IMG/VR virus record: IMGVR_UViG_3300044841_000118
Coordinates: 1-60,317 of that record
Length of the DNA stretch: 60,317 bases
Reading direction: 5' to 3' (one strand)
DNA from: a virus
Taxonomy: Duplodnaviria; Caudoviricetes
Shown here: in pieces, positions 18,277 through 50,124 of the stretch
How the letters are laid out: every line of letters begins with the position of its first letter
Position numbering within the stretch: position 1 is the stretch's first letter
Position numbers and translations under genes: made by a program
The notes under the pieces: model-generated
Told to the model about the DNA's origin: nothing
What the model saw: only the letters and a program-made list of their open reading frames with translations
Databases searched by the model: none

Positions 18277-18903
18277 TTAGCTGCCCATCACCTTCTTGGC
18301 GATTTTTGTGGCGCGTGGCGTATCGTCGTCATCGTCGCCGTCTACATCCGGTTCGTTGTCGGCGCAGCAGGACTTGTCTTCTACCGGATGCCCTTTCATA
18401 GAGCACCAGCGCGGACGCCCTTCGGAGTCGGGCTGATTCAGTATCCCTTCGCCGTACTCACAGCGCTCACACCCAAAGCCGCGCGGGTTCGGTGTGGTGC
18501 CGAAGTCCATGCGTGTGTCGTTGAATCGACCGCCGGGACAGTACTTCCCTTCCGGGTCGCCGAAATTCGTGACCTCCCAGAATCCGCAACTGGACTGGTG
18601 CGGCTTGGCGATCACTTCGGTGATACGGATGAGGCAGGCGTCGCCGGGGGCGAGCTTGTTGCAGGCCGCCGAAGACCCGTCCTTCAATCCGCCACAGAGG
18701 TAGGCACCCATGGGGTCGTACGTGTTGGAGAGGCCGCACCGCGAGTCTGCGTACTGCGCCAGCCGGACGCTGTCCATGCGGCGCTTCGCGTACATCACCT
18801 CGTCTTCCACGGTGATGCTGGTCGGCATGATGAACAGGCCGTCGTCGCCGACCGGTGCGTAAAGGATGGGTCTCCCCTGCTGCTTGTCTGTTTGTTTGCT
18901 CAT
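18277..18903 (-). CDS. Cys-rich protein (11 Cys), putative metal/Fe-S binding
   Basis: two Cys clusters; the second is CERC-x15-C-x11-CC. Confidence 0.6.
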   Translation of the reverse strand: MSKQTDKQQGRPILYAPVGDDGLFIMPTSITVEDEVMYAKRRMDSVRLAQYADSRCGLSNTYDPMGAYLCGGLKDGSSAACNKLAPGDACLIRITEVIAKPHQSSCGFWEVTNFGDPEGKYCPGGRFNDTRMDFGTTPNPRGFGCERCEYGEGILNQPDSEGRPRWCSMKGHPVEDKSCCADNEPDVDGDDDDDTPRATKIAKKVMGS

Positions 18904-20606: not shown

Positions 20607-21104
20607 CTAAACCAAGGTGAGCGTCAGAACGCCGCTGACCACCTGCAACCGGTACGTGTTCCCATTGGTCGTATCAGGGATCACAATGCCGCCGGACGCG
20701 CTGGTGTCGAACTCTGGCGCGTGGACAGTGCCGGTAAAGGTGGCACCGGCAAGTGCTGCTCCGCCGATAGCGGCGAGGGTGCCGGATGGTAGGTCAGCGG
20801 TGGTGAGCGCGCGGAAGGTCGGCGCTGCTGCGGTGCCGCTCGCCGGGCCAGCCCAGAAGGTGTTGGCTGTCTGCGTCGCGAGTGTGGCGGTGATGGTTCC
20901 GTTCGCGGTCAGCGGGGATCCGGTGATGGTGAAGATACCGGGGAAAGTCAGGCCGACGCTCTGCAACGCGACGGCGAATGTCGCATCTTCGCGCAGAAAC
21001 TTTGTCGTGCCAGGCGTCGATCCCGGGTCAGGGACGAAGCCTGGCGCATGGTTCGGGCCGGAGGCACCCATCTGCGTGTTCTGTGTGAGAATCTTCGCCG
21101 ACAT
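20607..21104 (-). CDS. short tail fibre-like protein
   Basis: KFLREDATF, AGPASG.AAAPTFRAL, GATFTG, YRLQVVSGVL fibre motifs. Confidence 0.7.
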   Translation of the reverse strand: MSAKILTQNTQMGASGPNHAPGFVPDPGSTPGTTKFLREDATFAVALQSVGLTFPGIFTITGSPLTANGTITATLATQTANTFWAGPASGTAAAPTFRALTTADLPSGTLAAIGGAALAGATFTGTVHAPEFDTSASGGIVIPDTTNGNTYRLQVVSGVLTLTLV

Positions 21105-21892
21105 TAGAACACCACCAGAAGCGTGTGACCGGTAGTTGGGGCGGTCGTGAAATCGATCACCCATTCCCCGGCGATGATGTTCAACGTCGCAGCGGCGGAG
21201 ACCTGATAAAAGCCGTTGTCGAAGACATCTACGCTGGTTGTCTCGGGCGCTCCGCCGACGATGCGGAACCGGGTCGTAGTTCCGTTCGGCACCGGGGCGA
21301 GTGCGTACTGCGCGCGGTCATCGACAATGTCGGGGGTGAAGATAGCGAATGGCGTTGCGCTGGCGGCGGGTGCTGTGGTGAAGACCACTGTCCAGTTTCC
21401 GGACACCCGGTTCAGCGTGTAGTCGGTACCGGGAATCAGCAGATGCCCGTCCGCGCTGTAGACGTCCACGTACGCGCCGTTAGGTAGCCCCGTCGGGAAC
21501 GTGAATGAGGTGATTGTGCCGTCTGCGATAGGCGTGAGTCCGTACTGCTGCCGCGCGTCCACCGGTGTTGCGTACACAGCCGCCATCGTCACGCTGGCTG
21601 CGGGGGGTGTAACGAACGCCACCTGACTGCCGCTCAGGGTATACGCGCTGGTCGGTTGCAGCAGCCCGCCCACGAAGATGTCGGTGTAGCCGCCGGGGAC
21701 CGGCCCCTGGATGGTGAAGGATCCATTCGACCCATCCGGCACGGGCGTCGTGGGGTACTGCTGCCGCGTCGTCTGCGCGCTCACGGTGACGCTCTTGTTC
21801 AGCGTCGCTGTCCCGCCGCCGAACAGACCTGCCCCGGCCACGACGGTGACGCCGACAGTGCTCGAGACGGGTTGCGGGTAGAGTTGGGGCAT
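21104..21892 (-). CDS. virion protein with three tandem repeats
   Basis: RQQY...P..DG...F...VDV...FTTAP x3. Confidence 0.7.
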   Translation of the reverse strand: MPQLYPQPVSSTVGVTVVAGAGLFGGGTATLNKSVTVSAQTTRQQYPTTPVPDGSNGSFTIQGPVPGGYTDIFVGGLLQPTSAYTLSGSQVAFVTPPAASVTMAAVYATPVDARQQYGLTPIADGTITSFTFPTGLPNGAYVDVYSADGHLLIPGTDYTLNRVSGNWTVVFTTAPAASATPFAIFTPDIVDDRAQYALAPVPNGTTTRFRIVGGAPETTSVDVFDNGFYQVSAAATLNIIAGEWVIDFTTAPTTGHTLLVVF

Positions 21893-22593
21893 TAGGCTTG
21901 AATCACAGCGAACGAGAAGGACACGTTGAGGATCGTGCTGCTGCCTACCGGGTTGGTCACGGTGACATAGATCGTGCTGACGCGGGTGTTGTCGTCGTTG
22001 AACCCGATCACGATCGGTGAGCAGGTCCAGTCCATCTCATTGGGCGCCAGCAGCAGAAAGTCAGCGATGATGCCGGACTCTGAGCCGGGTACCACCGGGC
22101 TGGTCTGGCTGCGGCCCAGATCAGCAACCTGCGCGGCCTTGGTCGAGTACATCCGGATGCGCGCCGGCGCGTTGACAGTGACGTGAAGCAGAGCAAACAC
22201 CGTCGCCATCGAAACCGACACCTGGATGGACTGTCCCTGGTTCAGGACCGGTGTGGTCACCGAAGCATTCTGAATCGTCTGCGCCGCTACGCTGCTGCCC
22301 GTCGTGCCTGCGGAGGAAGAGCCACCAGTGCCGATAACCGTCGTGGTCGACCCCGACGAAGCTCCGCCGTTGTTGGTCGGCTGCGACGGCGTCATGGTGC
22401 GCGTCTGGGGAATCCCCGGCATGTCGAACTGGCGCAGCGAATCAGGGGTGACCGAGACCGGGGGCAGAGGACAGCGGAGGAAGTTCGGCGCGGCCTGCGC
22501 AGCCTTGACATCACCACCACTCGGCGTGGGCCGGGTGGTCGGCTCGTATCTCTCCCGGTTGATCGGTGCTGTCGCTTCTGCTAGGGTCGCCAT
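21892..22593 (-). CDS. tail-associated structural protein
   Basis: ATG 22593 coupled to nozzle stop; PARIRMY beta domain. Confidence 0.65.
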   Translation of the reverse strand: MATLAEATAPINRERYEPTTRPTPSGGDVKAAQAAPNFLRCPLPPVSVTPDSLRQFDMPGIPQTRTMTPSQPTNNGGASSGSTTTVIGTGGSSSAGTTGSSVAAQTIQNASVTTPVLNQGQSIQVSVSMATVFALLHVTVNAPARIRMYSTKAAQVADLGRSQTSPVVPGSESGIIADFLLLAPNEMDWTCSPIVIGFNDDNTRVSTIYVTVTNPVGSSTILNVSFSFAVIQA

Positions 22594-25500
22594 TATTTCT
22601 CGGAAGAATAGCCGCCGTACAATGTGAGACTTAGAAGCTCGTTGGCAGCGTCTTCTGCGGGCCATGCGAACTTGATCTGCATGTGACGGCAGATTGCGGG
22701 CAACTGTGTCTGCGAGAAGTACCGGCGGTCCATGTAGAGGGAGGCGCTGGCCGGCAGTTGCGTCGGGTCGGGAACGTTGTTCGGCAGCGCCTCGAAGGTT
22801 CCGGATATCTCGTCGAGCAGCACGCTAATCGACGCGCGCGACCCGAGAGCACTGGCGTCCGTCGTCAGGAAGGAGAGTTCGGCAATCTGGCCGGGCAGTG
22901 CGAGCACTAGCGAACCGATGATGCCGAATGCTGTGAAGGCCGTACCGTTGTCAGTGTTGGCGGACAGGTTGCGCTGCAGGAGTTGGCCGGATCCGGTGGG
23001 TCCGACCAGTAGTTTGTGCACGCCCGGGGTGATCTCGATGGACTGGACCGCCTTGACGCCGCCAGTTATGGTCGCGAACGGACTCCACATCATGCCGGTC
23101 TCGGGCGCGGGCGTGGGGCACAGCCGGTACCATCCGGTCGAACCGTTCGCCACGTACAAGGCCTTGTCCTGTGAGCCGTCCACATGCCAGCTGACGTACA
23201 CCTGCGTCGGGTCCCACAACTGAAGCTGGTCGCCGATCGGGAAGCCCACTTCGGAGACTCCGGAGCTCGGGTCGAGCGCGATCAACTGCCGGTCGGCCGT
23301 GAAGAGGTAGATCAGCGTGCCGTTGACATCCAGCGCGTTGTAGGAGAGCAGCCCGATGCCGGTGAGGTACGGCGTGAACAGCAGCGGACTGTTCGCGGTT
23401 GCGTTGCCGACGCCCAGGTAGATGTCTGAGACGGTGAAGACCAGCAGGCCGATAGATGTCGGCACCATGCGCTTCACCGCGCTGGGAAAGGTCGCGAAGT
23501 TGATCGGCTGAAATCCGTTCGTGCCGTTGCCGATGGGCGTGTCCGGGCCGGTCGACCAGTACACCGTGTTGCCCAGCGAGACGAAGATCCGGCCAAGGTG
23601 GTAGGTCAGGTTGACCACTCCCACCAGTGGTGGCGTGTTCTGTAGCGCCGTTGGTGCCTGCAGCAGGATGTTCAGTCCGCGGTCGGTGGTCGTGTCTGTA
23701 TACCCATTGGCGAGATAGTCCTGAATCGCAAGCGTGTACGGGGTGTTTCCCGGGCCGGGGATCAGGAAGAAAGTCGCGCCGCCGTCCTGTGTCCGGAAAA
23801 TGGCCACGTAATCAACCTGCGGGTCATAATTCGCCGGGATGCCGCCGCTCACCGCTACGCCCGTGGAGGCGCGGAAGTTGCCAGTCGCCGCAGTGATCGG
23901 GCTGACATTCGACACCGTGTCGTCCAGCGTGTTGACCAGCGAAATGCAATACTCCCACCCGCCGTTGACTGTGGTCAGCGTGCCAGTGGGTGGCGAGCTC
24001 GCCTGCCCCTGGTTGATCCAGAGCAGGTTCGGATTGTCGGCGGTCGTCCCGGAAAATGTGGTGGAGAATGACGGCTGCGTCGTCCCGGACTTACCCGCTT
24101 CATACGGGTTCTGGGTGTTGTTGTTCGGGTCGATGATGTCCGCGGTCGTGATGTATGAGGTCAGCGCGATCCATGCGTAATCCGCGACCGGGCCGATGTT
24201 CGTCCAGGTGAGCGCGCCCTGCGACTCGGACACCGTCGGATAGCTCGGGGCGAAGCTCGTGTTCCAAGCCGGCCAGATGGGTTGGGTTGCACCGCTCTCT
24301 GCGGGGTCCGGGATGATGTTTTGCCCGTTGACAGTGACCTGCAGAGTCTGGCCGGAGTGGTACCAGTAGTCCCAATCGATCTCGATGGGATACGTGCCGG
24401 CGGAGGGGAAATTCACCACCACCGAGTCGGTATTCGTGCCCGCCATGTTCGTGCATCCGAACACCGGGAAATTGCTCACCGCCGTCGTGGTCTGGCCGAT
24501 GGGGTTGGTGGTGAGGCCGCTCACCATCTCGGCGCCGCCGCCGATGCCCCAGATCAGGCCGTCCTGATGGATGAGGCTGAAGGTGTACTGCCCCGGCGCA
24601 GGGACTTCGATGTTGGCGATCAGCGCGAGCGCGTAGTTCTCTGAGTTGCTGGGGAACGGGACCGTGTACCCGGTGGTCTCGCCCGCGCCGTTCAGCGTCG
24701 CCCACTGCACTGGCTTGCGGTTCGGGTTCGCTGGCGGATTGAACAGGAAGCTGTTGCCGGAAGCGGTCGCCACTGCGCTGCCCGTGGTTGTCGGGAAGGT
24801 GAGGATGCAAGCGCCCACCGGCCCGCTGTGCGGCGCGTTGTAGAGGTAGGCGTTGATCGCCCCGGTGGTCTTGATGCCGGAGAAGCCTTCAAGCTTGAAC
24901 AGGCAGGGTGTGCCGACGGCTGTACCGATGATGAACTGGCCTTGCGGGTACGTGGTATGTGGATGCCATACCAGCGAGGCCGCCGTCTGGATCATCGTCC
25001 AAATGGCCGTGCCGTCTGTCGTGGTCGTACCGACGGAAGTAGCCCATGCCGGGGCGCTGTTGCTGCTCGTGCCCGCAGTTGTCACCTTCTGCAGGTTGCC
25101 GTTGCTGTCGATGACGACTGGGTCGTTCGCGTAGAACGTGTTTGGCTGCCAGGAGTTGCTCTGACCCCCGTGAACGATGGTCGGCTTGACACTCGGCGCG
25201 GCGATGCCCCAGTTCTGGAGCGGGTTGCCGCGATTCACCCAGATGATCGTGCCGTCGTAGGTCTTGCCGAGCAGCGTCGTGTTCCAGGTCGGCTGCGTGG
25301 TGCCGGTGATCGCAGTGCCGCCGGAGAGCACGGCGGCTTTGCCAGTATCGGCGACGCTGGTGTCTGCATGGGTGAAGTTGTTCGTGAACGACGCGGTGAA
25401 GGTCGTGCCGCTCACTGCGGTGATGGTGACGGTCTGGCCGTTCAGCCAGGTCGCTGTGCTCAGGCCAGAGAACCGGATGCTCAGGTCAACGGCGAGGATC

Positions 25501-26147
25501 GCGCTGATGTCAGCGGTGCAGGTGATCGTCAGGACGTTGCTGGCCACCGCGACGTGCGCCACCGTGGCGAAGACGCCGAACAACTGCTGCATGTTTCCGT
25601 TCGGGTCGATCAGGAAAGTCTGGGTGCTGGCGATGTCCAGCGTGGTGTTGGCGGTCCATGCGAGCAGCGAGTTCTGCAGCTTCTTTTGGTCAATGCCGTT
25701 GCCGAAGAACAGGCAGTTGGCGACGCTCTGCATGTAGCTTTGGCCAGCGCCAGCGCTCTTTGTCCACAAAATGGACTTGGTGCTCGCCCCTGTCGCGTTG
25801 TAGAGACCGTCGGCCTGGTCGGCCAGTACTTTGATCTGCTCGGTACGCGCGTTGAACAGCCGCAGTTCGTAGAAGAAGTCGACCGCGTTGAAGGTCTGGG
25901 AGTTGTAGACCGTGTGCCCGGGTCGACGGATGGCAGTCAGTCGGTTGGAGAGTTCGATGTTGCTGCCATCGATGAACGCATCACCGCGTGGCCCGTAGAA
26001 CTTCTCCTCCATACGCGTGCTCGCGGCATCGCGCAGGGGGCTGCGCTGCGTCCACAGGCCGGTACAGAAGCGACCGGTCCAGAGAGGGGCGTAGTGGGAA
26101 CTACGCAGCGCCTGCGCGCCTGCTAGTTGAAGGGCATTTCCAGACAT
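22593..26147 (-). CDS. tail nozzle (P22 gp10/T7 gp12-like) with large inserted repeat and PA14-like region
   Basis: N-terminal SNIEL...RRPG; C-terminal propeller-like GRIFV..G..VYWS and CRHMQIKF. Confidence 0.7.
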   Translation of the reverse strand: MSGNALQLAGAQALRSSHYAPLWTGRFCTGLWTQRSPLRDAASTRMEEKFYGPRGDAFIDGSNIELSNRLTAIRRPGHTVYNSQTFNAVDFFYELRLFNARTEQIKVLADQADGLYNATGASTKSILWTKSAGAGQSYMQSVANCLFFGNGIDQKKLQNSLLAWTANTTLDIASTQTFLIDPNGNMQQLFGVFATVAHVAVASNVLTITCTADISAILAVDLSIRFSGLSTATWLNGQTVTITAVSGTTFTASFTNNFTHADTSVADTGKAAVLSGGTAITGTTQPTWNTTLLGKTYDGTIIWVNRGNPLQNWGIAAPSVKPTIVHGGQSNSWQPNTFYANDPVVIDSNGNLQKVTTAGTSSNSAPAWATSVGTTTTDGTAIWTMIQTAASLVWHPHTTYPQGQFIIGTAVGTPCLFKLEGFSGIKTTGAINAYLYNAPHSGPVGACILTFPTTTGSAVATASGNSFLFNPPANPNRKPVQWATLNGAGETTGYTVPFPSNSENYALALIANIEVPAPGQYTFSLIHQDGLIWGIGGGAEMVSGLTTNPIGQTTTAVSNFPVFGCTNMAGTNTDSVVVNFPSAGTYPIEIDWDYWYHSGQTLQVTVNGQNIIPDPAESGATQPIWPAWNTSFAPSYPTVSESQGALTWTNIGPVADYAWIALTSYITTADIIDPNNNTQNPYEAGKSGTTQPSFSTTFSGTTADNPNLLWINQGQASSPPTGTLTTVNGGWEYCISLVNTLDDTVSNVSPITAATGNFRASTGVAVSGGIPANYDPQVDYVAIFRTQDGGATFFLIPGPGNTPYTLAIQDYLANGYTDTTTDRGLNILLQAPTALQNTPPLVGVVNLTYHLGRIFVSLGNTVYWSTGPDTPIGNGTNGFQPINFATFPSAVKRMVPTSIGLLVFTVSDIYLGVGNATANSPLLFTPYLTGIGLLSYNALDVNGTLIYLFTADRQLIALDPSSGVSEVGFPIGDQLQLWDPTQVYVSWHVDGSQDKALYVANGSTGWYRLCPTPAPETGMMWSPFATITGGVKAVQSIEITPGVHKLLVGPTGSGQLLQRNLSANTDNGTAFTAFGIIGSLVLALPGQIAELSFLTTDASALGSRASISVLLDEISGTFEALPNNVPDPTQLPASASLYMDRRYFSQTQLPAICRHMQIKFAWPAEDAANELLSLTLYGGYSSEK

Positions 26148-26522: not shown

Positions 26523-27584
26523 CTAACCGCCGAATGGCCAGCCGGGTCCGATCGCCGCGCCCCCGTAGTAGCTGCCCGACTCCATCAGCCCACTGGAGGG
26601 GTACATGACGAAGTTCTCCTGCTCGCGGTCGGCTGCGCGCAGTGCGGTCATCAGGGTCGTTTCCCAGCCTGCCATGGTAGCGGCAGCTTTGGCGCTCCCG
26701 GCGTGCTCCATCAGATACGCCTTCAGGCCCTGCCGGAACAGGTACGCCATGTTGTTGGGCAGCGGGTAGATCGTGCTCTGCAGGTTCACGAACACGGGCG
26801 GGTTCCGCTGGTAGACCGGGTAGATCAGCCAGCAGAGTCCGCAGATGGCCGGCACCGGGTCCATGCGGACAGCCGCGCCGTCCGGGTCGGCCACTGTCCA
26901 TATAACGGACCCGTCCTGCACCGTGGTGCCAGGAGCCGAAAGTGTCGGCAGTGAGGGCTGGGTGCTTCCGCTCACCCCGTAAGGGCTGTTCGTCAGCGAG
27001 ATGGTGTCGCCGGTGAACCCCGGCGATACGCGATTCAATCCGAGCACCGTGCTGTCTATGTAGAGCAGATTCCCGTTGGCGTCCATGAACTGCTGCACCG
27101 GGGTGATGGGTGTCTGGGCGACGCCGTACCCGCAGGAGTAGACCGTGTTCGGCTGCCAGGTTCCCAGGATCGCGAGCTTGTTGGGGATCACGTTGAAGTC
27201 AAACGGCGACCCCTGCAGCGACTGCGGGTTCAGGTCGCGCACCGCTTCCGTGGTGAACTCCGGCTTCATCGCCAGGTTGCCGTTATTTGTGTTGTTGTTG
27301 ATGTCGACGCGGGTCACGCTCTCGAGCCAGCCCACGTCGGAGACCTGCGTCAGGTAGTCCTGTTGCAGCGCGACGGTGAGGAACGAAGGGATGAGCGCGC
27401 GGTTCCACTTCCAGTCCATCCCCTGCGCGAAGATCCGCTGCATCACGTCATTCGCCAGCGTCAGCGCGGGTTCTGTCGAGTAGCCGGTCGTCCCCAGGAT
27501 CGGGACGAGTTCGGGATACGTGCGAAGGAAGTTGACGATGCCTTGCAGCGTCAGACTGTTGTTGGTCGTTGTGAGTATGGGCAT
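26523..27584 (-). CDS. head-tail adaptor (tail tubular A-like), paralogue 2, with insertion
   Basis: PALTLANDVMQ...WKWNR...QQDY...GWLES. Confidence 0.7.
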   Translation of the reverse strand: MPILTTTNNSLTLQGIVNFLRTYPELVPILGTTGYSTEPALTLANDVMQRIFAQGMDWKWNRALIPSFLTVALQQDYLTQVSDVGWLESVTRVDINNNTNNGNLAMKPEFTTEAVRDLNPQSLQGSPFDFNVIPNKLAILGTWQPNTVYSCGYGVAQTPITPVQQFMDANGNLLYIDSTVLGLNRVSPGFTGDTISLTNSPYGVSGSTQPSLPTLSAPGTTVQDGSVIWTVADPDGAAVRMDPVPAICGLCWLIYPVYQRNPPVFVNLQSTIYPLPNNMAYLFRQGLKAYLMEHAGSAKAAATMAGWETTLMTALRAADREQENFVMYPSSGLMESGSYYGGAAIGPGWPFGG

Positions 27585-27588
27585 GGGT

Positions 27589-29511
27589 TTAGTAGCTGCA
27601 TCCCCACTTAGTCAGCGTGGGGTCGTACCGGCAATCCATCGGCTTATTGACAACAGCAGTTGAGGCGTTGGCGAAGTTGCCGCCCGTAACGATGGTCCAT
27701 GCAAAGTCAGGCCAGAGGGTGATTTTGCATAACTTGTTAAGGCTGTCGATGGTCGTCACCGCGCAGCCCGTGGGAACCGTCATGGTCTGAATTGAGCCGC
27801 CAGTTGTTGCCGTGACGTGGACCACAGCAGCCGTGGGAGCAATCGTGGAGTTAGCAACTGCTGCTATGTTTAGCGTGGCGCCGACGACATCGTAGGGCGT
27901 ACCTGCTGATGTCCATCCAGAGGTGGTGCCGCCCACTGCATTGCCCGTGTTGTTAACGTCGACAGTAACGCCGTGACCGCCGCCCTGTATGAATGCGTCG
28001 CCCTTTGATGTCTCGTAGCCGAACCTAGCCCTGCTGCCGGAGACGGAAAAGAAGTTAGTTGTCGCTCCACCAGCGCCAATGGTGAAAGCGCCAATCGTGC
28101 TGTTATCAAACGAGACGGACAAGTTGCCGCCCAGCACCAGGGCAGCGTTGTCGAAGTCCTTTGAGAGCCCTGTCCCATCGCAGACCTGATTCCCCAGCAT
28201 GGACACGCCGCCCGGCAGTCCGCCGACGAAGACATTTCCCGTGGCAGTGACGAACTCGTTGTAACCGCCTGCGGTCTGGTTTGCCCCACACCATAGGTTC
28301 GACATCTTGATCTTGCTAGCGAGGGAGCCGAAGAAGAAGTCCGAACTTCCGGGGTAGCTGTTATTCCATGTCCGAGACAGCCCGCTGACCGAGGAGTTGG
28401 TGCCCTCGAAGTCAATGCAATACTTGAATGTCGAGTCACACTCGAAGCCGATGAAGGCGCTATGTCCGCCGTCGTACACCCCTACGATGGAGCCGATGGG
28501 ATGAAGACCGTAGTAGCGGTTATCCCCCGACCCTCCGGTGATGTAAGTCCCTGCTACCGTAAAGTTGCCGTTTGTGCGGACTGCATAAAAGTCCGAGTCC
28601 GTCACGTTCTGAATCAGCAGGCCATAGTTCAGGCTTGCTGTAGGAAAGACCTGGACATACACCTGCCCGCAAGCCACACCTGTCTGAGACCAGGTAATTC
28701 CAGTCAGTGTTCCGCCCGATAGAACAGCGGTGCCTACTGGAAGGGTGGTGCAGGACTGAAGCGGGTCCAACACCAGCACGGACGTACCGGCTGGCAGGTT
28801 CGACCCAGCAGACGTGATTGTCGTACCAGAGATCGCACCGGTCGTCATTGTGACTGCTACCAGCGGGTCCACGACGCCGGAAACCGAAGGGCTGGTCTGA
28901 ATCAGGATGTCGTTGACCTGTAACTCATACGAGTAGCCACTACCCGTTGAGCCGAGCTGCAATACGTGGTCTGAGCCATTCGCATTCTTTAGCAGCAAGT
29001 GTTCGATCTTGGATCGACGGACGCCGAACACTTCCAGAGCTGCCGGAGCGTTGCCGTTGGCGTCGATGGTCATGTTCGCTATGTCGGGCTGCTGGTTCGG
29101 ATTAGCTCCGAAGGGCTGACCGACCGAGGCGACTGCGACAGAGCAGGACTGTTGAACGGTCGTGTTGATTGCTCCCACCCCATTCAGCGAGAGCGTTGCT
29201 CCCGAAGCCAGAGCAGGCAGCGTGAAGGCGTTGCAGTGGCGATAGGTTCCCGTGCCAAACTGGAGCAATGCATTCTTGTTATTCGCGGTCACCCATGCAG
29301 AGGCAGCCGTAAAAGCAGCGTCTGGTGATGCGTATCCGTCCGCATAGAAGATGGTCCCGATCTGCGGCGCACTGATCGGGCCACTAAATGCCTGCGGACT
29401 CGTGGTGGATGTAGACGCGCCACCGTTGGACGGCTGAAAGACAGGACTCTGCGCGCCGCACGAAGCCGCAGCGAGCAACAGCCCGAAAACGATGAGCAGC
29501 TTACTGCGCAT
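27589..29511 (-). CDS. beta-helix tailspike-like protein with signal peptide
   Basis: MRSKLLIVFGLLLAAASCGA|Q; LQFGTGTY...LNGVG pectate-lyase-like start. Confidence 0.7.
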   Translation of the reverse strand: MRSKLLIVFGLLLAAASCGAQSPVFQPSNGGASTSTTSPQAFSGPISAPQIGTIFYADGYASPDAAFTAASAWVTANNKNALLQFGTGTYRHCNAFTLPALASGATLSLNGVGAINTTVQQSCSVAVASVGQPFGANPNQQPDIANMTIDANGNAPAALEVFGVRRSKIEHLLLKNANGSDHVLQLGSTGSGYSYELQVNDILIQTSPSVSGVVDPLVAVTMTTGAISGTTITSAGSNLPAGTSVLVLDPLQSCTTLPVGTAVLSGGTLTGITWSQTGVACGQVYVQVFPTASLNYGLLIQNVTDSDFYAVRTNGNFTVAGTYITGGSGDNRYYGLHPIGSIVGVYDGGHSAFIGFECDSTFKYCIDFEGTNSSVSGLSRTWNNSYPGSSDFFFGSLASKIKMSNLWCGANQTAGGYNEFVTATGNVFVGGLPGGVSMLGNQVCDGTGLSKDFDNAALVLGGNLSVSFDNSTIGAFTIGAGGATTNFFSVSGSRARFGYETSKGDAFIQGGGHGVTVDVNNTGNAVGGTTSGWTSAGTPYDVVGATLNIAAVANSTIAPTAAVVHVTATTGGSIQTMTVPTGCAVTTIDSLNKLCKITLWPDFAWTIVTGGNFANASTAVVNKPMDCRYDPTLTKWGCSY

Positions 29512-29932
29512 TGCGGCCTCGCGTGTAGAAGAAGTGGATCTGTGTGGTCCCGTCCGCGCCGGTCAGCGTGCCGATGTTCACACGAATATAGGGGACTGGC
29601 TTCGAGTTGAACGAGTAGGTCTTCACTGTGGCGGAGGCGCATGTAACGTCGCCGCTTGGGGTGTCCACGCCGGTATCCCATGCCACGGTGTCAGGAGAAC
29701 TCTGTACCTCGAACGTGCAGACGCTCGGCACCGTGCCGGTGACGTATACCTGGACCGAGTACGATCCCGGCGCGCCACCGTTTCCGGCATTGAGCGTCAC
29801 AGGGATGCCGACCACGCCGGTCGCCACGGCCAATGGCCATGAGTAGGTTCCGGGGGTCGCGTAGGTCACCTGCTGCCCCCACGTCCGGAAAACGGACAGA
29901 AGGAGGATGAGGGGGAGGAGAATGCGCTTCAT
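29501..29932 (-). CDS. small beta-sandwich virion protein with signal peptide
   Basis: MKRILLPLILLLSVFRTWG|Q; VQSSPD...W...PYIRV. Confidence 0.7.
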   Translation of the reverse strand: MKRILLPLILLLSVFRTWGQQVTYATPGTYSWPLAVATGVVGIPVTLNAGNGGAPGSYSVQVYVTGTVPSVCTFEVQSSPDTVAWDTGVDTPSGDVTCASATVKTYSFNSKPVPYIRVNIGTLTGADGTTQIHFFYTRGRNAQ

Positions 29933-29944
29933 ATGAGGGGGTCT

Positions 29945-31258
29945 CTACTTGCTGGCGGTATAGTTGTCGGCGGTGTAAAGCATCGTGACGGTCTTGGAAG
30001 CACCGGTTATGTCTGTCTGCTTCTGGCTTCCTGTGGCTGAAGACCAGCCGGTATGCAGGAAGGCGGCGCGCATCGTCTGGTTCAGGACATAGGTGGTTGC
30101 CGATCCACCGGAGGCCTGAACAGTCAGCGAGTCGTAGTAGTTGCACGGCCCCGGAGTAGTTCCCGTCCCGCTTGCATTCGCTAACGTGCAAGCGGTGTCA
30201 CCGACAAGTCGGTGCCCCTTGAACGTGATGTGGTACCACGTCCCTGCGGTCAGGTTGCAGGGGACATTGGTACCGCTCTGCTTGGCGGTGATCCATGAGT
30301 CGTTCTGGTTGTCGATCTGCCAGATGTGCGAACTAAGATTGCATTGCAGGCCGAACATGAAGTCCAGGCCGTCGGTGCTGTCGAACATGTACATGTCCGA
30401 CTCGAGGTTTGCCGCGAAACTCACGGCGTTCGTGCTCGGCTGCATCCAGAAGTCATTCGAAAAGAAGGTGCAGCTATCGCAGTTCGGGAAATGCTTCACC
30501 CACAGAGCGTTGGTCTGCGTAGCCGACGATGTCGTAGAGAGCGTAGTCTGCATCCCCAGCGTGTCTGCGGTCGGTGGGCTGCTGACTGTCTGATAAGTAA
30601 TGGCTGTCGAGGCCGGAGCGTTGTTACCGCCCGGATTGCACGCGGTCAGGACACAGACTGCCTTGTCGTACTGCGCAGTGTCTGTGCTGTTGGTGATAGT
30701 GACCACGGGTGTCGCGCCTGTCCCGCTGGTCCCCCCGGACCCACTTCCCGTAGGGGTTACGGTCAGATCGGCGTTGGACATCGAATAGCCGATGGTCCAG
30801 TTAGGCGCTGCTGGGTTGGTCGTGCATCCCGCTGCGGCCTGCATGATGCCCCACATATAGGAGTGATTCGCTTGGAGAGCGAATGGCGTGGCGGGGTCTT
30901 GGGTGTAAGCTCTCTGCCCGTTCACGAAGGTGATGCGAAACTGCGAATCTACTTCCGCGCTCGTCGTGGTCGTGTCGTACAGCGTCACGATTGCAGGGGT
31001 GGTGCAGCCAACCGGGGCTGTCGACAGAACCACGTCCACTGTCTGAACATTTACCGCTACGGGGAGGTCGAGGACGGACCCGATCCCGGCAGTATTTGTT
31101 CCGGTGAACGTCGTCGTGTTGTCCGAGGTCCACGGGATAAACGCGACAGCCTGAGATGTGTGGACGGCCGATGGGTCAGGCAGTCCGGCATAGGACTGCG
31201 CCGCCGCGTGGAAGGAAAGCACGAGCCCGGCGCATACAGCGACCAGCGTCTTATTCAT
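29945..31258 (-). CDS. secreted protein with C-terminal lectin/ConA-like domain
   Basis: MNKTLVAVCAGLVLSFHAAA|Q; LESD...FGLQC...W...VPC...WYHI. Confidence 0.7.
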   Translation of the reverse strand: MNKTLVAVCAGLVLSFHAAAQSYAGLPDPSAVHTSQAVAFIPWTSDNTTTFTGTNTAGIGSVLDLPVAVNVQTVDVVLSTAPVGCTTPAIVTLYDTTTTSAEVDSQFRITFVNGQRAYTQDPATPFALQANHSYMWGIMQAAAGCTTNPAAPNWTIGYSMSNADLTVTPTGSGSGGTSGTGATPVVTITNSTDTAQYDKAVCVLTACNPGGNNAPASTAITYQTVSSPPTADTLGMQTTLSTTSSATQTNALWVKHFPNCDSCTFFSNDFWMQPSTNAVSFAANLESDMYMFDSTDGLDFMFGLQCNLSSHIWQIDNQNDSWITAKQSGTNVPCNLTAGTWYHITFKGHRLVGDTACTLANASGTGTTPGPCNYYDSLTVQASGGSATTYVLNQTMRAAFLHTGWSSATGSQKQTDITGASKTVTMLYTADNYTASK

Positions 31259-34217
31259 TGATGACTCCGGGGGAATCTGCTAGCCAGGCTGTCTGCGGTA
31301 CTGAATAGCTGAAGTGCTGCGAGGCACACTTGCTGGCCGTTGGCGCCGACCATGTCAGGAATCCGTGCACATTCGCGGGAGAAGCGACCGTCCTTCCGCC
31401 CGTGGCGTCCTGGCAGAAGGTCAGGGTCTTTGGCTGCCCATCGATGCCTGCTGCCAGTGTGAAGCTGGTGATGTTTCCCGTCAGGACGATGTAACTCTGC
31501 AGCGTCGCCGTAGAGAATGTCGGCGTGGCGGAGAAGGTCACCGTCTCCGACGATCCGGTCAGGGAGAAGTGGGTCCAGTGGTTCGTGGCATCAGCAACGT
31601 AGACGCCAGCACCGGCAAACCCGGACCCGGAAGAGATGTAGACCTCGCCCTGCTGTGTTGGTTCCGTTGCCGAGGTCGGGGCCGCCCTACCGATGATTAA
31701 CCCGCCCGTGGTAGTGATCCCCAGAAAGCCCGACGGGATGATGTTTGTGTTAATCGGTGCTGTATTGGTGTCGAAGATTTGCAGCGTCTGCGCTACAGCC
31801 GGATGCCCGTTGGTCGCTACGTCTCCCTGCGAGATAAGTCCCGGCGTGAAGCTTGGGTCAGTCGTCGCTTGGCGATATAGCTCATAGTGTGTCGTGCCGG
31901 ACGGTAGGGCTACGAGGATCTTGACGTTGTTCAATGGTCCGGTAGTCGCTGGAGGTGTGACCGACTCGGTGGCTATCTGACTGAAGGAGAAGCTGCCGCC
32001 TACCCATGCCTTGTATGCGTACGAATATGTGAAGGTGCCCGGCGATCCTGCGGTTGTAATGTTGGGAACGCCGATGACTGCGGACGGCCTGAACTGTGCG
32101 GTGCCGATGACATCCAGCATCGACAGCGACTGCACCGATGGCGTTGCCTGATTCGCAAAGTTGACCTGCCAGAAGTCCTGATCGACCGCTTGGCAGTTGG
32201 CCTGCGCGAAAATGGTTACTGGCGAACCTGTGTTGAAGACGAAGAACTCTAGCGAGTTAGACGGGCCGACGATATTGTGCCCCGTGCAGCTGTAGAAGTT
32301 TCCGCCGCTCTCCGGGGCCACGAGGATGTCATTTGCGCTCGCCAGCGAGATATAGAGATGCTGCCCGATGCGCTCGTTTGTGAGGCTCGTGATGTTCGTC
32401 GAGGATCCGTTCTGCATCAGGACATGGACGTACCTGCCCACGTCTGGGCTAGATCCGGTGAGCGGCGATCCACCGTTAAACTCTGCGCGATCCATCTCCG
32501 GAGTGGTCATGTTGACGCCCGGATAGGCGCCTAATGCGACTGCTCCAGAACGGTCGATCTGGTCGCCGTTGGCAGCAGGTACGTTCACCCACGAGCCTTG
32601 CCCAGCCGCGACGTATCCGGTGCGGAAGGAGGTTCCCAGCGGCGGATTGTCGAAGACATCTCCAGCCGTCCAGAAACCCCCGCTGGCGCTTGCATCTTCG
32701 ACGTCGTCGCAGTACCCGCGGGCAGTCACCCCGGCCTGAAACTTGCAGCCCTGAGATGCTTGGAAATGCGTGATCACCGAACTCGATGAGCCAGCAAAAA
32801 TGGCAGGGCCTGCGTGACCTTCCGACCTGACATTCGTTAGCAGCACGTGGGCAGCGGTAGAAGGTATGCAGATACCGTATTCGTCAATCTGGACGAAGGC
32901 CTTATCGACCAACTGTCCGCCGCCGCCGACAACTAAGCCGCAGAGGTGTCCGAACTCAGTGCCGGGGGTGTTGAATGTCCCGTAAGTCTCGACACTGTGG
33001 ATGCGTCCGTCTCCGCTGTTGTTCTCAACGCCGCCGTGCATTCCGTCTGTCGATGGGTTGTAGGTGATCCCGCTGCCGCGGTCGAATCGTAACCATGCCT
33101 GCGTGTCAAATGCCCAGAGGTCGTAGAAGTCGGAGTCCTGCCCGTTCGCGTCAATGCCTGTTCCGCCGGTGTAAGCAGCGCGGAGGTTCCTGCCGGTGCC
33201 ATGCGCTAAGCCGATGAAGATGCCCGTCTGATGTGGTCCAGCATTGCCCGTATAGGGGGACCCGGGGCTCTGTGCGCCACCGGTGTTCACCGTTCCCTGT
33301 ACCTGGATGTTCTCGACATTTCCACCGTCGAAGGAATTGGTAGCGGTCGTTCCATCAGCGCAGGTCGAGGTTTGCGGATCATCCACCCGGAAGATCCCGG
33401 AGTCAGTAAACGGGGAGGTGAAGATCGTGCCGCCTTCGTTGTTGCTCCCTCCCACGCCAATCGTTCCGCCGGCCGTCCCGATGACGTTCATGCCCGGTCC
33501 GAATGTCAGCGTCGGCGCTGCCGTTACGCCCACTTGGAATTTCCCCGGGGGGATAAAGATTGTGGCTGCACGGTGATTCCGCGATACGAAGCAGTTCATT
33601 TCGTTCGCGACTTCCTGCAGCGCCAGCGCGGGGTTGCTGGCCAGCGTAACCACGGTGTTGTTGCCGTCGATCTTCTCGACGCGCGGACGGCGGGCATCGA
33701 AGAGGCCGCGGTTCAAGTCCTCGACCCACGCCTGTGTCGTGTTGCCGGAGCCGTCGGTCGACCATCCCACTTCAGGGGCGGACACGATGGTGCCGCTGCC
33801 GTTCGATGCCACACCTTGGTTCGGGGTGACGGTGACAGTGCCGCCGCCTGCGCCGCCGAGCGTGACTACCTGCGTCTGGCAGGACGTGCCGGTTGCGCAC
33901 ATCTGCTCGACATAGTTGCCGGCGGTCACCCAGTAGGAGTAGTTGCCGTTCTTGTCTGCCTGAATTGGGTTCGTCGAATACGGCACCGTCATCGCCGGAT
34001 CCTTGTAAAGGGTCACGGTGCTGGTGCAGGCAGTCGGGTTGGACGAGTTGTAGGAGCAGACCTTGACCTGCGCGTAGGCCAGAATCCGGGCGACGCTTGA
34101 GGCGTTGCCGAGCGCCGTTGCCTGCCGCTGTGCTCCCTGCGCCTCGGCGGAGACGCAGAAAGACCCGGCCGCAAAAAGCAGCAGAGTCGAAAGGATCAAA
34201 CGTTGCATCCGGTTCAT
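31251..34217 (-). CDS. tailspike (particle-binding N-domain plus beta-helix) with signal peptide
   Basis: signal ...VSAEA|Q; LYKDPAMT...NPIQADKNGNY; TIFIPPGKF; C-terminal QDATGGRT. Confidence 0.75.
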   Translation of the reverse strand: MNRMQRLILSTLLLFAAGSFCVSAEAQGAQRQATALGNASSVARILAYAQVKVCSYNSSNPTACTSTVTLYKDPAMTVPYSTNPIQADKNGNYSYWVTAGNYVEQMCATGTSCQTQVVTLGGAGGGTVTVTPNQGVASNGSGTIVSAPEVGWSTDGSGNTTQAWVEDLNRGLFDARRPRVEKIDGNNTVVTLASNPALALQEVANEMNCFVSRNHRAATIFIPPGKFQVGVTAAPTLTFGPGMNVIGTAGGTIGVGGSNNEGGTIFTSPFTDSGIFRVDDPQTSTCADGTTATNSFDGGNVENIQVQGTVNTGGAQSPGSPYTGNAGPHQTGIFIGLAHGTGRNLRAAYTGGTGIDANGQDSDFYDLWAFDTQAWLRFDRGSGITYNPSTDGMHGGVENNSGDGRIHSVETYGTFNTPGTEFGHLCGLVVGGGGQLVDKAFVQIDEYGICIPSTAAHVLLTNVRSEGHAGPAIFAGSSSSVITHFQASQGCKFQAGVTARGYCDDVEDASASGGFWTAGDVFDNPPLGTSFRTGYVAAGQGSWVNVPAANGDQIDRSGAVALGAYPGVNMTTPEMDRAEFNGGSPLTGSSPDVGRYVHVLMQNGSSTNITSLTNERIGQHLYISLASANDILVAPESGGNFYSCTGHNIVGPSNSLEFFVFNTGSPVTIFAQANCQAVDQDFWQVNFANQATPSVQSLSMLDVIGTAQFRPSAVIGVPNITTAGSPGTFTYSYAYKAWVGGSFSFSQIATESVTPPATTGPLNNVKILVALPSGTTHYELYRQATTDPSFTPGLISQGDVATNGHPAVAQTLQIFDTNTAPINTNIIPSGFLGITTTGGLIIGRAAPTSATEPTQQGEVYISSGSGFAGAGVYVADATNHWTHFSLTGSSETVTFSATPTFSTATLQSYIVLTGNITSFTLAAGIDGQPKTLTFCQDATGGRTVASPANVHGFLTWSAPTASKCASQHFSYSVPQTAWLADSPGVINE

Positions 34218-34220
34218 CGT

Positions 34221-34943
34221 TTAGAAGGCTCCGCGCCCTTGGCGGGCGGACTGGGCATTGCCCAGGGTTTCCTGCGACTGACGCTGGGTATCCAGCCGGT
34301 CGGAGAGGAAGATGTTGGCTTGCGTCTCGTTCAGGCCACCGTTCGCCGCGATGCTCTGCCGCAGGAACAACTGCATGGCTACGCCGAACCGCTCGTCGCC
34401 GAGATACTCGTACGCTTTGGCGAGCATGCCCTGCGAGCACAGATAGTGGAGGTAGTCGGGGATCGGTGCCCACGTCTGTGACGGTGCTGTGAAGATCGGC
34501 GCCGCGTTCTGCGACGTCACTGTGACGGTGTAGACGCCATCCGGCACTGGGTGTAGGCGGAAGGTGATGTTCCCTGCCCCGTCATCCAGTTGCGCTGAGA
34601 TGTGGACGAGCTCGCCTTGCTGTTTCTCGTCGGCGAGGATCATCTTCACTTCAAGTTCGCGCGCGGGGTTCACGCTCTGGGTCAGATCAGTGAAGGTTGC
34701 TTTCTCGATCCATCCGAAGGTCGCTGCGGACACCGAGTAATCCTGTGTGCCTGCCGCCGTTTGGAAGGTCGTCACGCTCCGGTTCCAGCGCCACGCGAAC
34801 GGTGCCGCGAGCAGAAACTGACGAACCCAGTCCGCGTTGAGCAGAGCCGGGTCGTTGTTGCTGCCGAAGGTCAGCGGCGCGTTGCGCACGAACTGCTGCG
34901 TCAAATTGATCGTGCGCTGGAGAGTGATCGTGGAGGATGGCAT
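34221..34943 (-). CDS. head-tail adaptor (tail tubular A-like), paralogue 1
   Basis: WRWNRS...TAAGTQDY...RLHPVPDGVYTV...PIPD. Confidence 0.75.
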   Translation of the reverse strand: MPSSTITLQRTINLTQQFVRNAPLTFGSNNDPALLNADWVRQFLLAAPFAWRWNRSVTTFQTAAGTQDYSVSAATFGWIEKATFTDLTQSVNPARELEVKMILADEKQQGELVHISAQLDDGAGNITFRLHPVPDGVYTVTVTSQNAAPIFTAPSQTWAPIPDYLHYLCSQGMLAKAYEYLGDERFGVAMQLFLRQSIAANGGLNETQANIFLSDRLDTQRQSQETLGNAQSARQGRGAF

Positions 34944-37452: not shown

Positions 37453-37530
37453 TGGCTGGCAGAGTAGGACTCGAACCTACATAGGCCGCATTAACAGTGC
37501 GGTTCTCTGCCCAGATTGAGATATCTGCCA
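37453..37530 (-). tRNA. tRNA-Asn (GTT)
   Basis: acceptor TGGCAGA/TCTGCCA, G73, CCA; anticodon arm CCGCA-CTGTTAA-TGCGG; T-arm GTAGG-TTCGAGT-CCTAC. Confidence 0.95.
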
Positions 37531-38706: not shown

Positions 38707-39690
38707 CTAGCTACCGGTCTGGGCCTGGATGCGGCGGTAGGTCATCGTCGCGCCGGGGCGCAGCGTGTTGGTGTACTTCACGTTGTACGACACCCAGCCG
38801 CCAATCTGACGGGCGGGATCGGAAACGCTACCGCTCTGCGGAGCCTCCTGCACCATCAGCTTGTAGTTCTTGTCGCCGGCCGCGTTCTTGCCCAGGAAGA
38901 TCGAGAAGATCGCGTCGTCGCCGAAGACGTAGGTGTTGTACTTCAGGACGGCGTCCACGGTGCCGCTCGGCGCGGTCGTGGTCTGCTTGAACTTCACGCC
39001 AGCAAACTCGATGACGTCGTTCTCGCCCAGGGGTCCGAGCAGCTTTGCACGGTCGCTGTCGCTGCCGCGCTTCAAGATGTCGGTCAGACCGTTCAGGCTC
39101 GTGTCGTTCAACACGTCCCGCACAGCAAACGGGTGGATGATGCCGCCGTAGCCGCCGTCGCTCAACATCGGACGGGCATTGACGTTGGCCAGGGACTGGA
39201 CAGCGCTGCGGATGCCGTTCGCGGTGAGGAAGGTGCCGTTCGCGATGTCGATGTTCACCGAGGAGTCCACGGAGACACCGGCGTCAGCGGTCAGCTGCAC
39301 CAGCTTGTTCAGGGTCAGTGCCAGGCGGTAGGCCAGTTCCTCAGAGAGGCTCTGCATCAGGCCGCCGTCGTCAATCGCAACGTCCATCGCCAGATCAGAC
39401 GAGTTGATGAAGTCAGCGTACTGACCGATCGTCGCGTTGATCGAGGTGGAGGTTTCGGTCACGCCGCTGCCGACAGTACCTTCGGCCGCCTGCGTGGTGT
39501 TGGAGCCCAGGAGGGCGTAGGTGAAGAACTGAACCTGGTTGCCGGACTTGACGGGAAGCGGCTTCTGCTTCGTCATCGACATGAAAGGCGTATTCGCCTT
39601 CAGGTTGGGAATCGACTTCCGCTCGTAGTGGATAGCAACCAGGTTAGGCAGGCTGCCGGAAGTCAGGATGGATGCTGGGGAATAACTCAT
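38707..39690 (-). CDS. major capsid protein (N4-gp56 family)
   Basis: LPVKSG..VQF...EGT...ATIGQYAD...IIHP...DP..QIG.WV. Confidence 0.9.
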   Translation of the reverse strand: MSYSPASILTSGSLPNLVAIHYERKSIPNLKANTPFMSMTKQKPLPVKSGNQVQFFTYALLGSNTTQAAEGTVGSGVTETSTSINATIGQYADFINSSDLAMDVAIDDGGLMQSLSEELAYRLALTLNKLVQLTADAGVSVDSSVNIDIANGTFLTANGIRSAVQSLANVNARPMLSDGGYGGIIHPFAVRDVLNDTSLNGLTDILKRGSDSDRAKLLGPLGENDVIEFAGVKFKQTTTAPSGTVDAVLKYNTYVFGDDAIFSIFLGKNAAGDKNYKLMVQEAPQSGSVSDPARQIGGWVSYNVKYTNTLRPGATMTYRRIQAQTGS

Positions 39691-46382: not shown

Positions 46383-46656
46383 CGAGGCCGCGTTCCTTGC
46401 AGTTGTATGGGCCGGAGCATCCGGGTAGCGTGCACTTGACTTCGTTCTGATCGACGGCGCAGTCGGACGGCTCAGGCTGAGGCGACGCAGAGACAACGCT
46501 CTTCGCCCACGCTGCCGCGAACTCGTTGACCGCGACCTTGCGCGCGGTGTTCAGCGCGTCGACCACATCGTTCGCGCGCACCAGCGTCGACTTGCCGTCC
46601 TTGAAGACGATGTTGTAGAGCTTGGACCCGTCTGGTGTAGCTGGTGAATACCCCAT
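46369..46656 (-). CDS. hypothetical protein
   Basis: coupled to neighbours. Confidence 0.6.
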   Translation of the reverse strand: MGYSPATPDGSKLYNIVFKDGKSTLVRANDVVDALNTARKVAVNEFAAAWAKSVVSASPQPEPSDCAVDQNEVKCTLPGCSGPYNCKERGLDGVQ

Positions 46657-49640: not shown

Positions 49641-49955
49641 TTACCGCATCACGTTGTAGGTGTCGCGGTATGGCGCGAGGTCCATCCAGACCTCCAGCGC
49701 ATCGTTCTCGACCCGTTCGCGTGTGATCGCGGGGTCGCCGTTCTGGAACTCTTCGAGATCCGCGAGAGCGTTGTGGTAGGCAACCTCGGCCTCGGTGAAC
49801 GACACATCGCCTTCGTGGTCGACGCGGATCTTGTGGATCAGCACGCGGTCGATGCGTAGGTCATCCGCGATGTGGCGGGCGAACACGACGTCGGACTTCG
49901 AGGAGGCGAGAGCCGGAAGAGCCGAGAGGAGCAGGACCGCGAGCAGCTTCTTCAT
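49641..49955 (-). CDS. small secreted protein
   Basis: GGAGG RBS; MKKLLAVLLLSALPALA|S. Confidence 0.7.
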   Translation of the reverse strand: MKKLLAVLLLSALPALASSKSDVVFARHIADDLRIDRVLIHKIRVDHEGDVSFTEAEVAYHNALADLEEFQNGDPAITRERVENDALEVWMDLAPYRDTYNVMR

Positions 49956-50124
49956 ACGGCCTCCGTGAACTATGGAGCAATCAGGCGGGGGAGCATCCCG
50001 CATCTAGTGGCCGCCGACATGTCGAGTGCCGCTCATCTTGCATTAAACGACCGATCGCATGTTGCGGTGTGTGCAGCCCTCCCACCGCGAGAGGCTCGTA
50101 ACGTGAGGTCTCCGCTGCTGCCTT

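Follow-up and report, generated by a model that had tools for sequence, protein, structure and literature searches.

Particles of tailed phages are thought to be built wholly in the reducing cytoplasm, and the virions of SU10, an Escherichia phage (Kuravirus), are built in that compartment as well. In the SU10 genome, the adaptor gene gp11 is followed by the long-fibre genes gp12/13, the short-fibre gene gp16 and the nozzle gene gp17, and the N-termini of the fibres dock on the adaptor and on a loop of the nozzle (PMC9509320; what is said of this and the other papers cited below refers to the accessible parts of their text). Here we analysed the virus record IMGVR_UViG_3300044841_000118, a complete sequence of 60,317 bp on one contig (hereafter the window, meaning this whole stretch of DNA). 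Its closest named relative is the Tunturiibacter phage Tunturi_3 (PP885686), a podovirus (PMC11924767) of an acidobacterial host, which has a matching structural gene set and shares 34% identity in the portal and 32% in an adaptor-like protein. Four consecutive genes on the minus strand of the window (27589-34217), encoding proteins of 988, 437, 143 and 640 amino acids (aa), fill exactly the interval between adaptor and nozzle, that is, the fibre slot of SU10, and all four proteins carry Sec-type leaders and even numbers of cysteines (Cys) in their mature chains. The best explanation is that these genes code for variable receptor-binding fibres or tailspikes, together with an accessory jelly-roll protein, of an SU10/Tunturi_3-like Acidobacteriaceae podophage, and that these proteins, in contrast to fibres of well-studied tailed phages, are made as Sec pre-proteins.

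The four genes encode, in order, a tailspike-like protein of 988 aa (first gene of the slot, 31251-34217), a protein of 437 aa (29945-31258), a jelly-roll protein of 143 aa (29501-29932) and a spike-like protein of 640 aa (last gene of the slot, 27589-29511). Each begins with one or two basic residues, an uncharged hydrophobic run and a small-x-small site, after which comes glutamine (Gln). The predicted cleavage sites are AEA/Q after residue 26 in the 988-aa protein (leader at 34140-34217, mature chain starting at Gln27), AAA/Q after residue 20 in the 437-aa protein, TWG/Q after residue 19 in the 143-aa protein, and CGA/Q after residue 20 in the 640-aa protein. Leaders were called by a home-made heuristic rule rather than SignalP, backed by their conservation in homologs. 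All four proteins passed the strict form of this rule at their first ATG, and by the same heuristic all four have the features of the Sec/signal peptidase I type, namely a basic n-region, an h-region some 10-15 residues long, and a cleavage site with small residues at both -3 and -1. None of the leaders has the twin-arginine (Tat) motif, RR being absent from all four n-regions. A Cys near the end of the leader occurs in the 640-aa protein alone; its A-A-S-C context is a poor fit to the lipobox consensus, and the homolog P0025 lacks this Cys.

Applied at the first start codon, the strict rule flagged eight of the 78 called open reading frames (ORFs) of the window, and a run of four or more leader genes arose in 0.37% of 100,000 gene-order shuffles. 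The sequence-only reading, which had described these Sec leaders ending before Gln, had also pointed out that they would fall away if the true starts lay downstream. The leaders were borne out by the heuristic and by the homologs, and the starts most probably lie where they had been placed: the ATGs that include the leaders are coupled to the preceding stop codons, adjoining or overlapping them at +4, -8, +12 and -11 nucleotides, and in three of the four genes the next in-frame start past the leader is at least 67 codons downstream. The 143-aa gene has GTG/TTG at codons 21-44, yet its leader is kept in homologs.

In the order 988, 437, 143 and 640 aa, the proteins contain 15, 11, 2 and 13 Cys in total, one of them inside each of three leaders, and 14, 10, 2 and 12 Cys in the mature chains, in exact agreement with an earlier hand count. 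That the Cys lie mostly as near-neighbour pairs was likewise supported: when successive Cys are paired, the median gap is 24 residues within pairs versus 57 between pairs (one-sided Mann-Whitney p = 2.6e-5). Two leaderless tail proteins that had been named for comparison both have 0 Cys, one of 262 aa (21104-21892) and the other given as 165 aa, which corresponds to a 185-aa ORF (20607-21164) read from Met21.

The gene directly upstream of this cassette encodes the adaptor (34221-34943, minus strand; 240 aa; PF24175 SU10_adaptor, E = 1.3e-12), a leaderless protein with 1 Cys that is 61% identical to the adaptor of the syntenic viral contig L003/L050. After the adaptor, the genes of 988, 437, 143 and 640 aa follow one another head to tail, and then come the genes of 353 and 1184 aa. 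The 353-aa protein (26523-27584, minus strand) is a leaderless, adaptor-like paralog that closes the slot; it shares 33% identity with the 240-aa adaptor across about 90 aa, 63% with its L003 counterpart and, over 98% of its length, 32% with the Tunturi_3 'structural protein' gp12. The leader-bearing cassette is flanked in this way by the adaptor and its longer paralog, and in Tunturi_3-like relatives these two genes are adjacent, in reversed order, with the fibre genes after both. The leaderless 1184-aa protein (22593-26147, minus strand) is named nozzle by position only; its N-terminus resembles Tunturi_3 gp19, it is 70% identical to the L003 counterpart, and the Pfam scan gave no match for it. 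In L003/L050, where the core proteins are 61-70% identical to those of the window, the slot holds six leader-bearing ORFs (1019, 312, 402, 147, 599 and ~660 aa). The same slot layout, with genes between adaptor and nozzle, was found in L003, L052 and L096.

The leaders are conserved in homologs while the remaining sequence diverges. Among the ten homologs of the 988-aa protein that were fetched, nine have a leader; the other one, P0017, is a fragment truncated at its N-terminus. A wider survey covered 80 related viral loci collected by alignment of the adaptor-like protein, and compared all proteins of at least 250 aa encoded in the interval from the adaptor genes to the nozzle (64 distinct sequences, which form 61 clusters at 90% identity). 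Genes were taken as the longest plus-strand ORFs and leaders were sought at any start in the first 45 codons, a procedure that missed at least one true leader (the 718-aa ORF of L050). A leader was called in 31 of the 61 clusters and was absent from 30. The median Cys content of the mature chains was 1.96% in leader-bearing versus 0.75% in leaderless clusters (p = 1.3e-9), and the Cys count was even in 29 of the 31 leader-bearing clusters (binomial p = 4.6e-7) versus 20 of the 30 leaderless ones; one of the two leader-bearing clusters with an odd count is likely a false leader call. Gln occupies position +1 in at least 19 of the 31 leader-bearing clusters. No core protein flanking the slot (adaptor, adaptor-like protein, nozzle, capsid or portal) was flagged with a leader.

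Counted by locus, 17 contain leader-bearing slot proteins and 16 contain leaderless ones only, and in L068, L099, L107 and L127, for example, all large slot proteins bear leaders. The leader-plus-Cys state is found in about half of the related viral contigs, replacing leaderless, Cys-poor fibres at matching positions, and ordinary Cys-poor fibres occupy the slot in relatives without leaders, Tunturi_3 among them. The sequence-only reading had suggested such a survey of related phages. Its general premise, that tailspikes normally lack signal peptides, agrees with the GenBank phages searched (tblastn of the four proteins against 50,697 phage records gave no match) but does not hold for this phage family. 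A simple explanation of the leader state by host phylum was dropped, the GC content of leader-bearing loci (42-59%) overlapping that of leaderless ones (42-55%).

Short motifs placed right after the cleavage site recur across distant loci. In the survey loci L062-L129, the first slot fibres show two recurrent mature N-terminal motifs, both of which start at the post-cleavage Gln: in one, a Gln/Pro-rich peptide leads into an N-A-K-Y..N-G-V-A-P-G-Y-like stretch, and the other, the type of the window, consists of Q-x-x-Q-R and a Cys-bridged beta domain. These motifs could serve as docking peptides or sorting signals. Leader-bearing ORFs were also observed in the long-tailed viral contigs L005-L007. 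In L006 (5926-17622), for instance, five of them (~289, 263, 233, 528 and ~2185 aa, with 50 Cys in the largest) come after the genes for the tape measure and the distal tail, and two of the five end in the conserved C-terminal domain described below, which indicates that the trait is not limited to podophages.

Judged by its alignments, the 988-aa protein is a mosaic. Compared with the 1019-aa slot protein of L003, the N-terminus (residues 3-120) is 53% identical and the last 104 aa are 71% identical, with an unrelated middle part. Its leader aligns with the leaders of five other slot fibres. The mature N-terminal peptide and the N-domain (approximately residues 27-125; 33843-34139, minus strand) contain four Cys and form a putative docking module. 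The particle-binding-type N-domain segment noticed earlier in this protein was confirmed and has a homolog in the N-terminus of an 837-aa fibre that L055 encodes without a leader (38% identity over 42 aa, pairwise E = 4e-8), whose gene lies directly after the adaptor gene, the position matching that of the 988-aa gene. When the 988-aa protein, the five leader-bearing slot fibres and the L055 fibre were aligned, four Cys were conserved in the leader-bearing proteins and none was present in L055, so that one module exists in two states, either without leader and Cys or with a leader and Cys bridges. The 988-aa protein has the make-up of a tail fibre, its N-terminal module being common to the fibres of related phages and its distal part variable (L003, L055). 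A complex prediction that combined the adaptor (two chains) with residues 27-130 of the 988-aa protein (three copies) scored 0.00; it was run without controls and counts neither way.

The middle of the 988-aa protein includes a probable right-handed beta-helix core (approximately residues 167-571; 32505-33719, minus strand). Neighbours of the protein in the ESM Atlas were phage tailspike and beta-helix clusters with scores of 0.80-0.85, and residues 167-571 resembled a NosD/Beta_helix cluster with a template modelling (TM) score of 0.64 by row and 0.31 by query, both being leads only. The beta-helix start read earlier from the sequence stands on this structural lead, the Pfam and PDB sequence searches having returned no match. 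The protein ends in a conserved C-terminal domain of about 104 aa (residues 885-988; 31254-31565, minus strand), which contains the Cys pair C935 and C964 and reaches a best-segment identity of 56-76% in viral contigs and Acidobacteriaceae genomes. Within the family of the 988-aa protein, C644 is invariant, and C491, C935 and C964 are nearly so. The C-terminal domain is the most conserved module, common to podophage fibres, long-tailed phage contigs and chromosomal copies; it has no Pfam family, and a receptor-binding tip, a chaperone and a sorting signal are candidates for its role. The first scan of viral contigs, with the single 988-aa protein as query, gave no match.

In its C-terminal part, the 437-aa protein shares 29% identity with the 402-aa slot protein of L003, which also bears a leader. 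A fifth ORF with a classical leader (2338-3225, plus strand; 295 aa, ASA before Gln, 2 Cys) lies on the other strand and outside the structural module; it shows a weak similarity to the 437-aa protein (26% identity over 91 aa, pairwise E ~5e-4 to 2e-3) and has no PHROG match.

The 143-aa protein, with the Cys pair C72 and C98, has 42 relatives among 1.84 billion representatives. In an alignment of 28 members (the window, L003 and 26 relatives), the leader is present in 26 and C72 is nearly invariant; P0055 is without both Cys, and P0035 and P0049 are without the second only. In eight relatives, the domain forms the N-terminal module of fibre-like proteins of 270-737 aa. An AlphaFold2 (AF2) model of the 143-aa protein is a jelly-roll with a predicted local distance difference test (pLDDT) value of 87. 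Foldseek matched it to the BPP-1 cement protein 3j4u_H (E = 6.6e-4, TM 0.54), also a jelly-roll, and further to carbohydrate-binding modules, C1q-like domains, picornavirus capsids and many uncharacterised phage proteins. These matches of the model are generic jelly-rolls and assign no function. A complex of the 143- and 640-aa proteins, considered on the basis of domain fusions, was rejected, the fused C-terminal parts not being homologous to the 640-aa protein.

As for the 640-aa protein, its centre is 28% identical to the tail-fibre-like protein P0026, and it has its leader, mature N-terminus and C-terminus in common with P0025; a leader is present in P0025 and absent from the leaderless P0026. 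A single-sequence AF2 model of the 640-aa protein was unusable (pLDDT 33). Residues 24-640, the mature chain, align at 36% identity with the C-terminal half of P0002, a leader-bearing metagenome protein of 1406 aa, and the 988-aa protein is 55% identical to the same P0002 over residues 85-675. In P0002, this 988-like region is followed by a complete 640-like mature chain, and this joining of both in one protein shows module shuffling among these fibres. None of the four window proteins was assigned to a family in the Pfam or PHROGs scans, and PDB sequence searches with the 988-, 640- and 437-aa proteins returned nothing meaningful.

The four window proteins all have Gln at +1. As a sample of the presumed host family, we took 400 kb of the Acidobacteriaceae genome G002 (L030-L049, G002:C1:100001-500000). 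In this sample, Gln occupies +1 in 11 of 65 heuristic leaders if the choice of site ignores that position, and in 20 of 66 if any A/Q-type site is allowed, against a background Gln frequency of 3.8%; many of the remaining leader calls in G002 are transmembrane segments. A glutaminyl cyclase (PF05096; L027-L029) was found in two of three Acidobacteriaceae genomes, with the match split in two in one of them. The leaders of the window look tuned to the host's own system of export and N-terminal capping. The exposure of N-terminal Gln by signal peptidase, the Q-rule, has been described as specific to Bacteroidetes (PMC5837995; PMC10653852), and the bias found here suggests that it extends to Acidobacteriaceae. 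Our literature search found no paper linking the Q-rule or glutaminyl cyclase to signal peptides of Acidobacteria.

A search with the conserved C-terminal domain returned 19 loci in Acidobacteriaceae genomes. At 15 of these (L008-L012, L014-L019, L021-L023 and L026), a leader-bearing homolog of ~930-940 aa containing this domain is found at one shared chromosomal place, downstream of a conserved membrane protein, a YceG-like protein and mostly also a lipoprotein-like ORF. In L014, Pfam assigned the genes on the upstream side to CDP-alcohol phosphatidyltransferase, GreA, RuvX and YceG; on the downstream side, at a distance of a few kb, there is a Phage_portal gene. The chromosomal homolog may be a fixed prophage remnant or part of a gene-transfer-agent-like element.

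The predicted nature of the four proteins as exported, disulfide-bonded and of tail-fibre type is well supported by the conserved leaders, the even Cys counts in 29 of 31 leader-bearing clusters and the Gln bias of the host sample. To this extent the inference drawn in the sequence-only reading stood; the fates it offered were joining the particle, acting as a secreted depolymerase or masking receptors. We regard it as about evenly balanced whether the four proteins are receptor-binding fibres that undergo export, acquire their disulfides in the periplasm and are joined to finished particles at lysis. This fate is favoured by the synteny with the SU10 fibre slot, by the homology of the N-domain to that of a leaderless fibre and by the replacement of leaderless fibres in related phages. 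The chains would cross the inner membrane unfolded through Sec; the leader would be cut off by signal peptidase I, and the new N-terminal Gln may cyclise to pyroglutamate. Disulfides would then form in the periplasm, where the proteins would fold, while particles that are fibreless and otherwise complete would be built in the cytoplasm. Once holin and endolysin have opened the inner membrane and the wall, particles and periplasmic fibres would mix, and the conserved mature N-termini would dock on adaptor and nozzle as the N-termini of SU10 fibres do. Surplus unbound protein may act as a free depolymerase. The SU10 fibres sit peripherally on the outside of adaptor and nozzle, and no core protein carries a leader, which makes such a late addition structurally plausible. 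A broader version, which we hold more tentatively and think slightly less probable than its negation, is that the whole soil podophage family, and probably other acidobacterial phages, route their fibres through Sec, furnish them in the periplasm with pyroglutamate and disulfides and mount them at lysis, related phages switching between the two states by gaining or losing the leader together with the Cys pairs.

Several points weigh against addition at lysis. The presence of the four proteins in the virion is a prediction from the sequence, and the leader calls come from our own heuristic. To our knowledge, no tailed phage adds periplasm-matured proteins to its particles, and a literature search, in which most subscription journals were not covered, found no report of leader-bearing tail fibres. 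The terms 'mass spectrometry', 'signal peptide' and 'tail fiber' are absent from the accessible main text of the Tunturi paper (PMC11924767). Assembly at lysis would compete with dilution, and the N-domain could be a generic beta-sandwich instead of a docking module. Both the 295-aa ORF, which is leader-bearing, paralog-like and located outside the module, and the leader-bearing homologs in bacterial chromosomes fit ordinary secreted proteins. Moreover, disulfides of extracellular particles can form without periplasmic export, as in the extracellular contractile injection system (eCIS) of Algoriphagus (AlgoCIS), in which Alg11 has a functional disulfide within the particle (PMC13314943).

The strongest alternative, though an unlikely one, is that the proteins are exported and never join the particle. 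They would then be free secreted or periplasmic depolymerases, lectin-like binders, or enzymes that destroy or mask receptors, derived from tail-fibre genes and expressed with the late operon; they might loosen host exopolysaccharide, stop progeny from re-adsorbing to debris or exclude other phages, and adsorption would be left to the nozzle and the small leaderless downstream proteins (257, 262 and 165 aa). It is established that tailed-phage particles assemble in the cytoplasm, and ordinary secreted proteins are marked by the combination seen here of leaders, even Cys counts and Gln at +1. The leader ORF in the non-structural part of the genome (2338-3225), weakly similar to the 437-aa protein, can be added to these points. 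The 143-aa jelly-roll resembles carbohydrate-binding modules too. Precedents are the exported bacterial tailspike-like exopolysaccharide (EPS) hydrolase WceF, which carries a Tat signal (PMC7949094), and the Q-rule secreted proteins of Porphyromonas gingivalis phages (PMC10367356). Leader-bearing homologs in Acidobacteriaceae chromosomes also point in this direction, but they adjoin a phage portal gene and are maybe prophage parts. A free enzyme, however, has no evident need for an N-domain homologous to that of a leaderless fibre or for the mature N-terminal motifs, and the adaptor would be left without a slot fibre, whereas leaderless relatives, Tunturi_3 among them, hold ordinary fibres there.

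It is still less probable that the leaders are idle during infection, the fibres staying in the cytoplasm and joining particles in the usual way with the leader retained or otherwise trimmed. Export might fail because Sec or the membrane potential is shut down late in infection, or because folding and trimerisation outrun it, and the Cys would oxidise after release into oxic soil. Such a reading stays with the assembly route of the textbooks, and an even number of Cys tells of pairing, not of the site of pairing; the Alg11 disulfide of AlgoCIS shows that disulfides work in particles built in the cytoplasm and then released (PMC13314943). If the leaders were idle, however, nothing would select for the full n-h-c layout, the small-x-small site and the host-typical Gln at +1, yet such leaders occur in four window proteins, in six L003 proteins and in at least 19 of 31 clusters. 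A hydrophobic leader would also be exposed on a soluble fibre, and SU10 fibres dock by their very N-termini (PMC9509320). That the leaders are gene-calling artefacts or chance hydrophobic N-termini with true starts downstream, as the home-made rule and the GTG/TTG codons inside or just past some leaders might suggest, is highly improbable in view of ATGs coupled to the preceding stops, next starts mostly at least 67 codons on, leaders kept in otherwise divergent homologs, a shuffle probability of 0.0037 for the run of four and the tracking of Cys content by leader presence (p = 1.3e-9).

The remaining structural genes form a podophage module on the minus strand of the window. It includes the large terminase (44397-46496) and the major capsid protein (38707-39690), both identified by Pfam/PHROG scan, and an SU10-type portal (41471-43546; PF23899, SU10_portal). 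A tRNA-Asn (GTT) gene (37453-37530, minus strand) lies within the module, between the capsid-side and the adaptor-side genes. In the late module, a leaderless ORF of 208 aa (18277-18903, minus strand) has 11 Cys (5.3%) among Cys-free neighbours and no Pfam/PHROG match. Finally, a small ORF (49641-50003, minus strand) has a classical leader if it is read from a start 16 codons in (~104 aa), with Ser instead of Gln at +1; it has no PHROG match.

What is new here is a conserved, family-wide class of slot proteins, probably tail fibres or tailspikes, with Sec leaders of a working type and paired Cys that are predicted to form disulfides. If their assembly after export is true, it would be a new assembly route and topology for tailed phages, in which the particle is finished outside the cytoplasm; such a two-compartment assembly would explain fibres tough enough for acidic, protease-rich soil. 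Alternatively, genes routinely annotated as 'tail fibres' in soil viromes would encode secreted glycan-active enzymes, which bears on the long-running question of whether the glycoside hydrolases of soil viruses have a structural role or act as metabolic helpers. The two possibilities can be tested directly on natural pairs that differ in the leader (the window or L003 versus L055 or Tunturi_3).

Virion proteins with Sec leaders are known from the filamentous phages: pIII and pVIII of phage Ff have such leaders, and pIII has disulfides formed in the periplasm. Filamentous phages, however, assemble at the membrane by extrusion, whereas tailed phages package DNA into a cytoplasmic procapsid. In the Bacteroidetes, substrates of the Q-rule resemble the window proteins in that signal-peptidase-I-type leaders expose an N-terminal Gln. 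Phages of P. gingivalis encode secreted proteins of this kind, which are small, of unknown function and, in the accessible text, not described as tail fibres (PMC10367356); they follow the rule of their host, whereas the host family of the window is Acidobacteriaceae and not Bacteroidetes. WceF of Pantoea stewartii is a tailspike-like EPS hydrolase, a right-handed beta-helix trimer with an N-terminal export signal that acts outside the cytoplasm; it is encoded on the chromosome in an EPS biosynthesis cluster and takes the Tat route, which exports folded proteins (PMC7949094). The window proteins differ from the WceF type in being phage-encoded, located in the fibre slot, Sec-type without a twin arginine, and rich in Cys. 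Like SU10, the window has portal and adaptor proteins of the families PF23899 and PF24175 and fibre genes between adaptor and nozzle. Unlike SU10, it has an extra adaptor-like paralog that closes the slot, and its slot proteins have Sec-type leaders and 2-14 paired Cys, whereas the accessible text on SU10 describes fibres with His pairs possibly binding Fe and mentions neither disulfides nor a leader (PMC9509320). In Tunturi_3, the adaptor-like gene does not close the slot but comes before the adaptor gene, and the slot proteins (fibres gp14-gp18) are leaderless with 0-7 Cys, whereas those of the window bear leaders.

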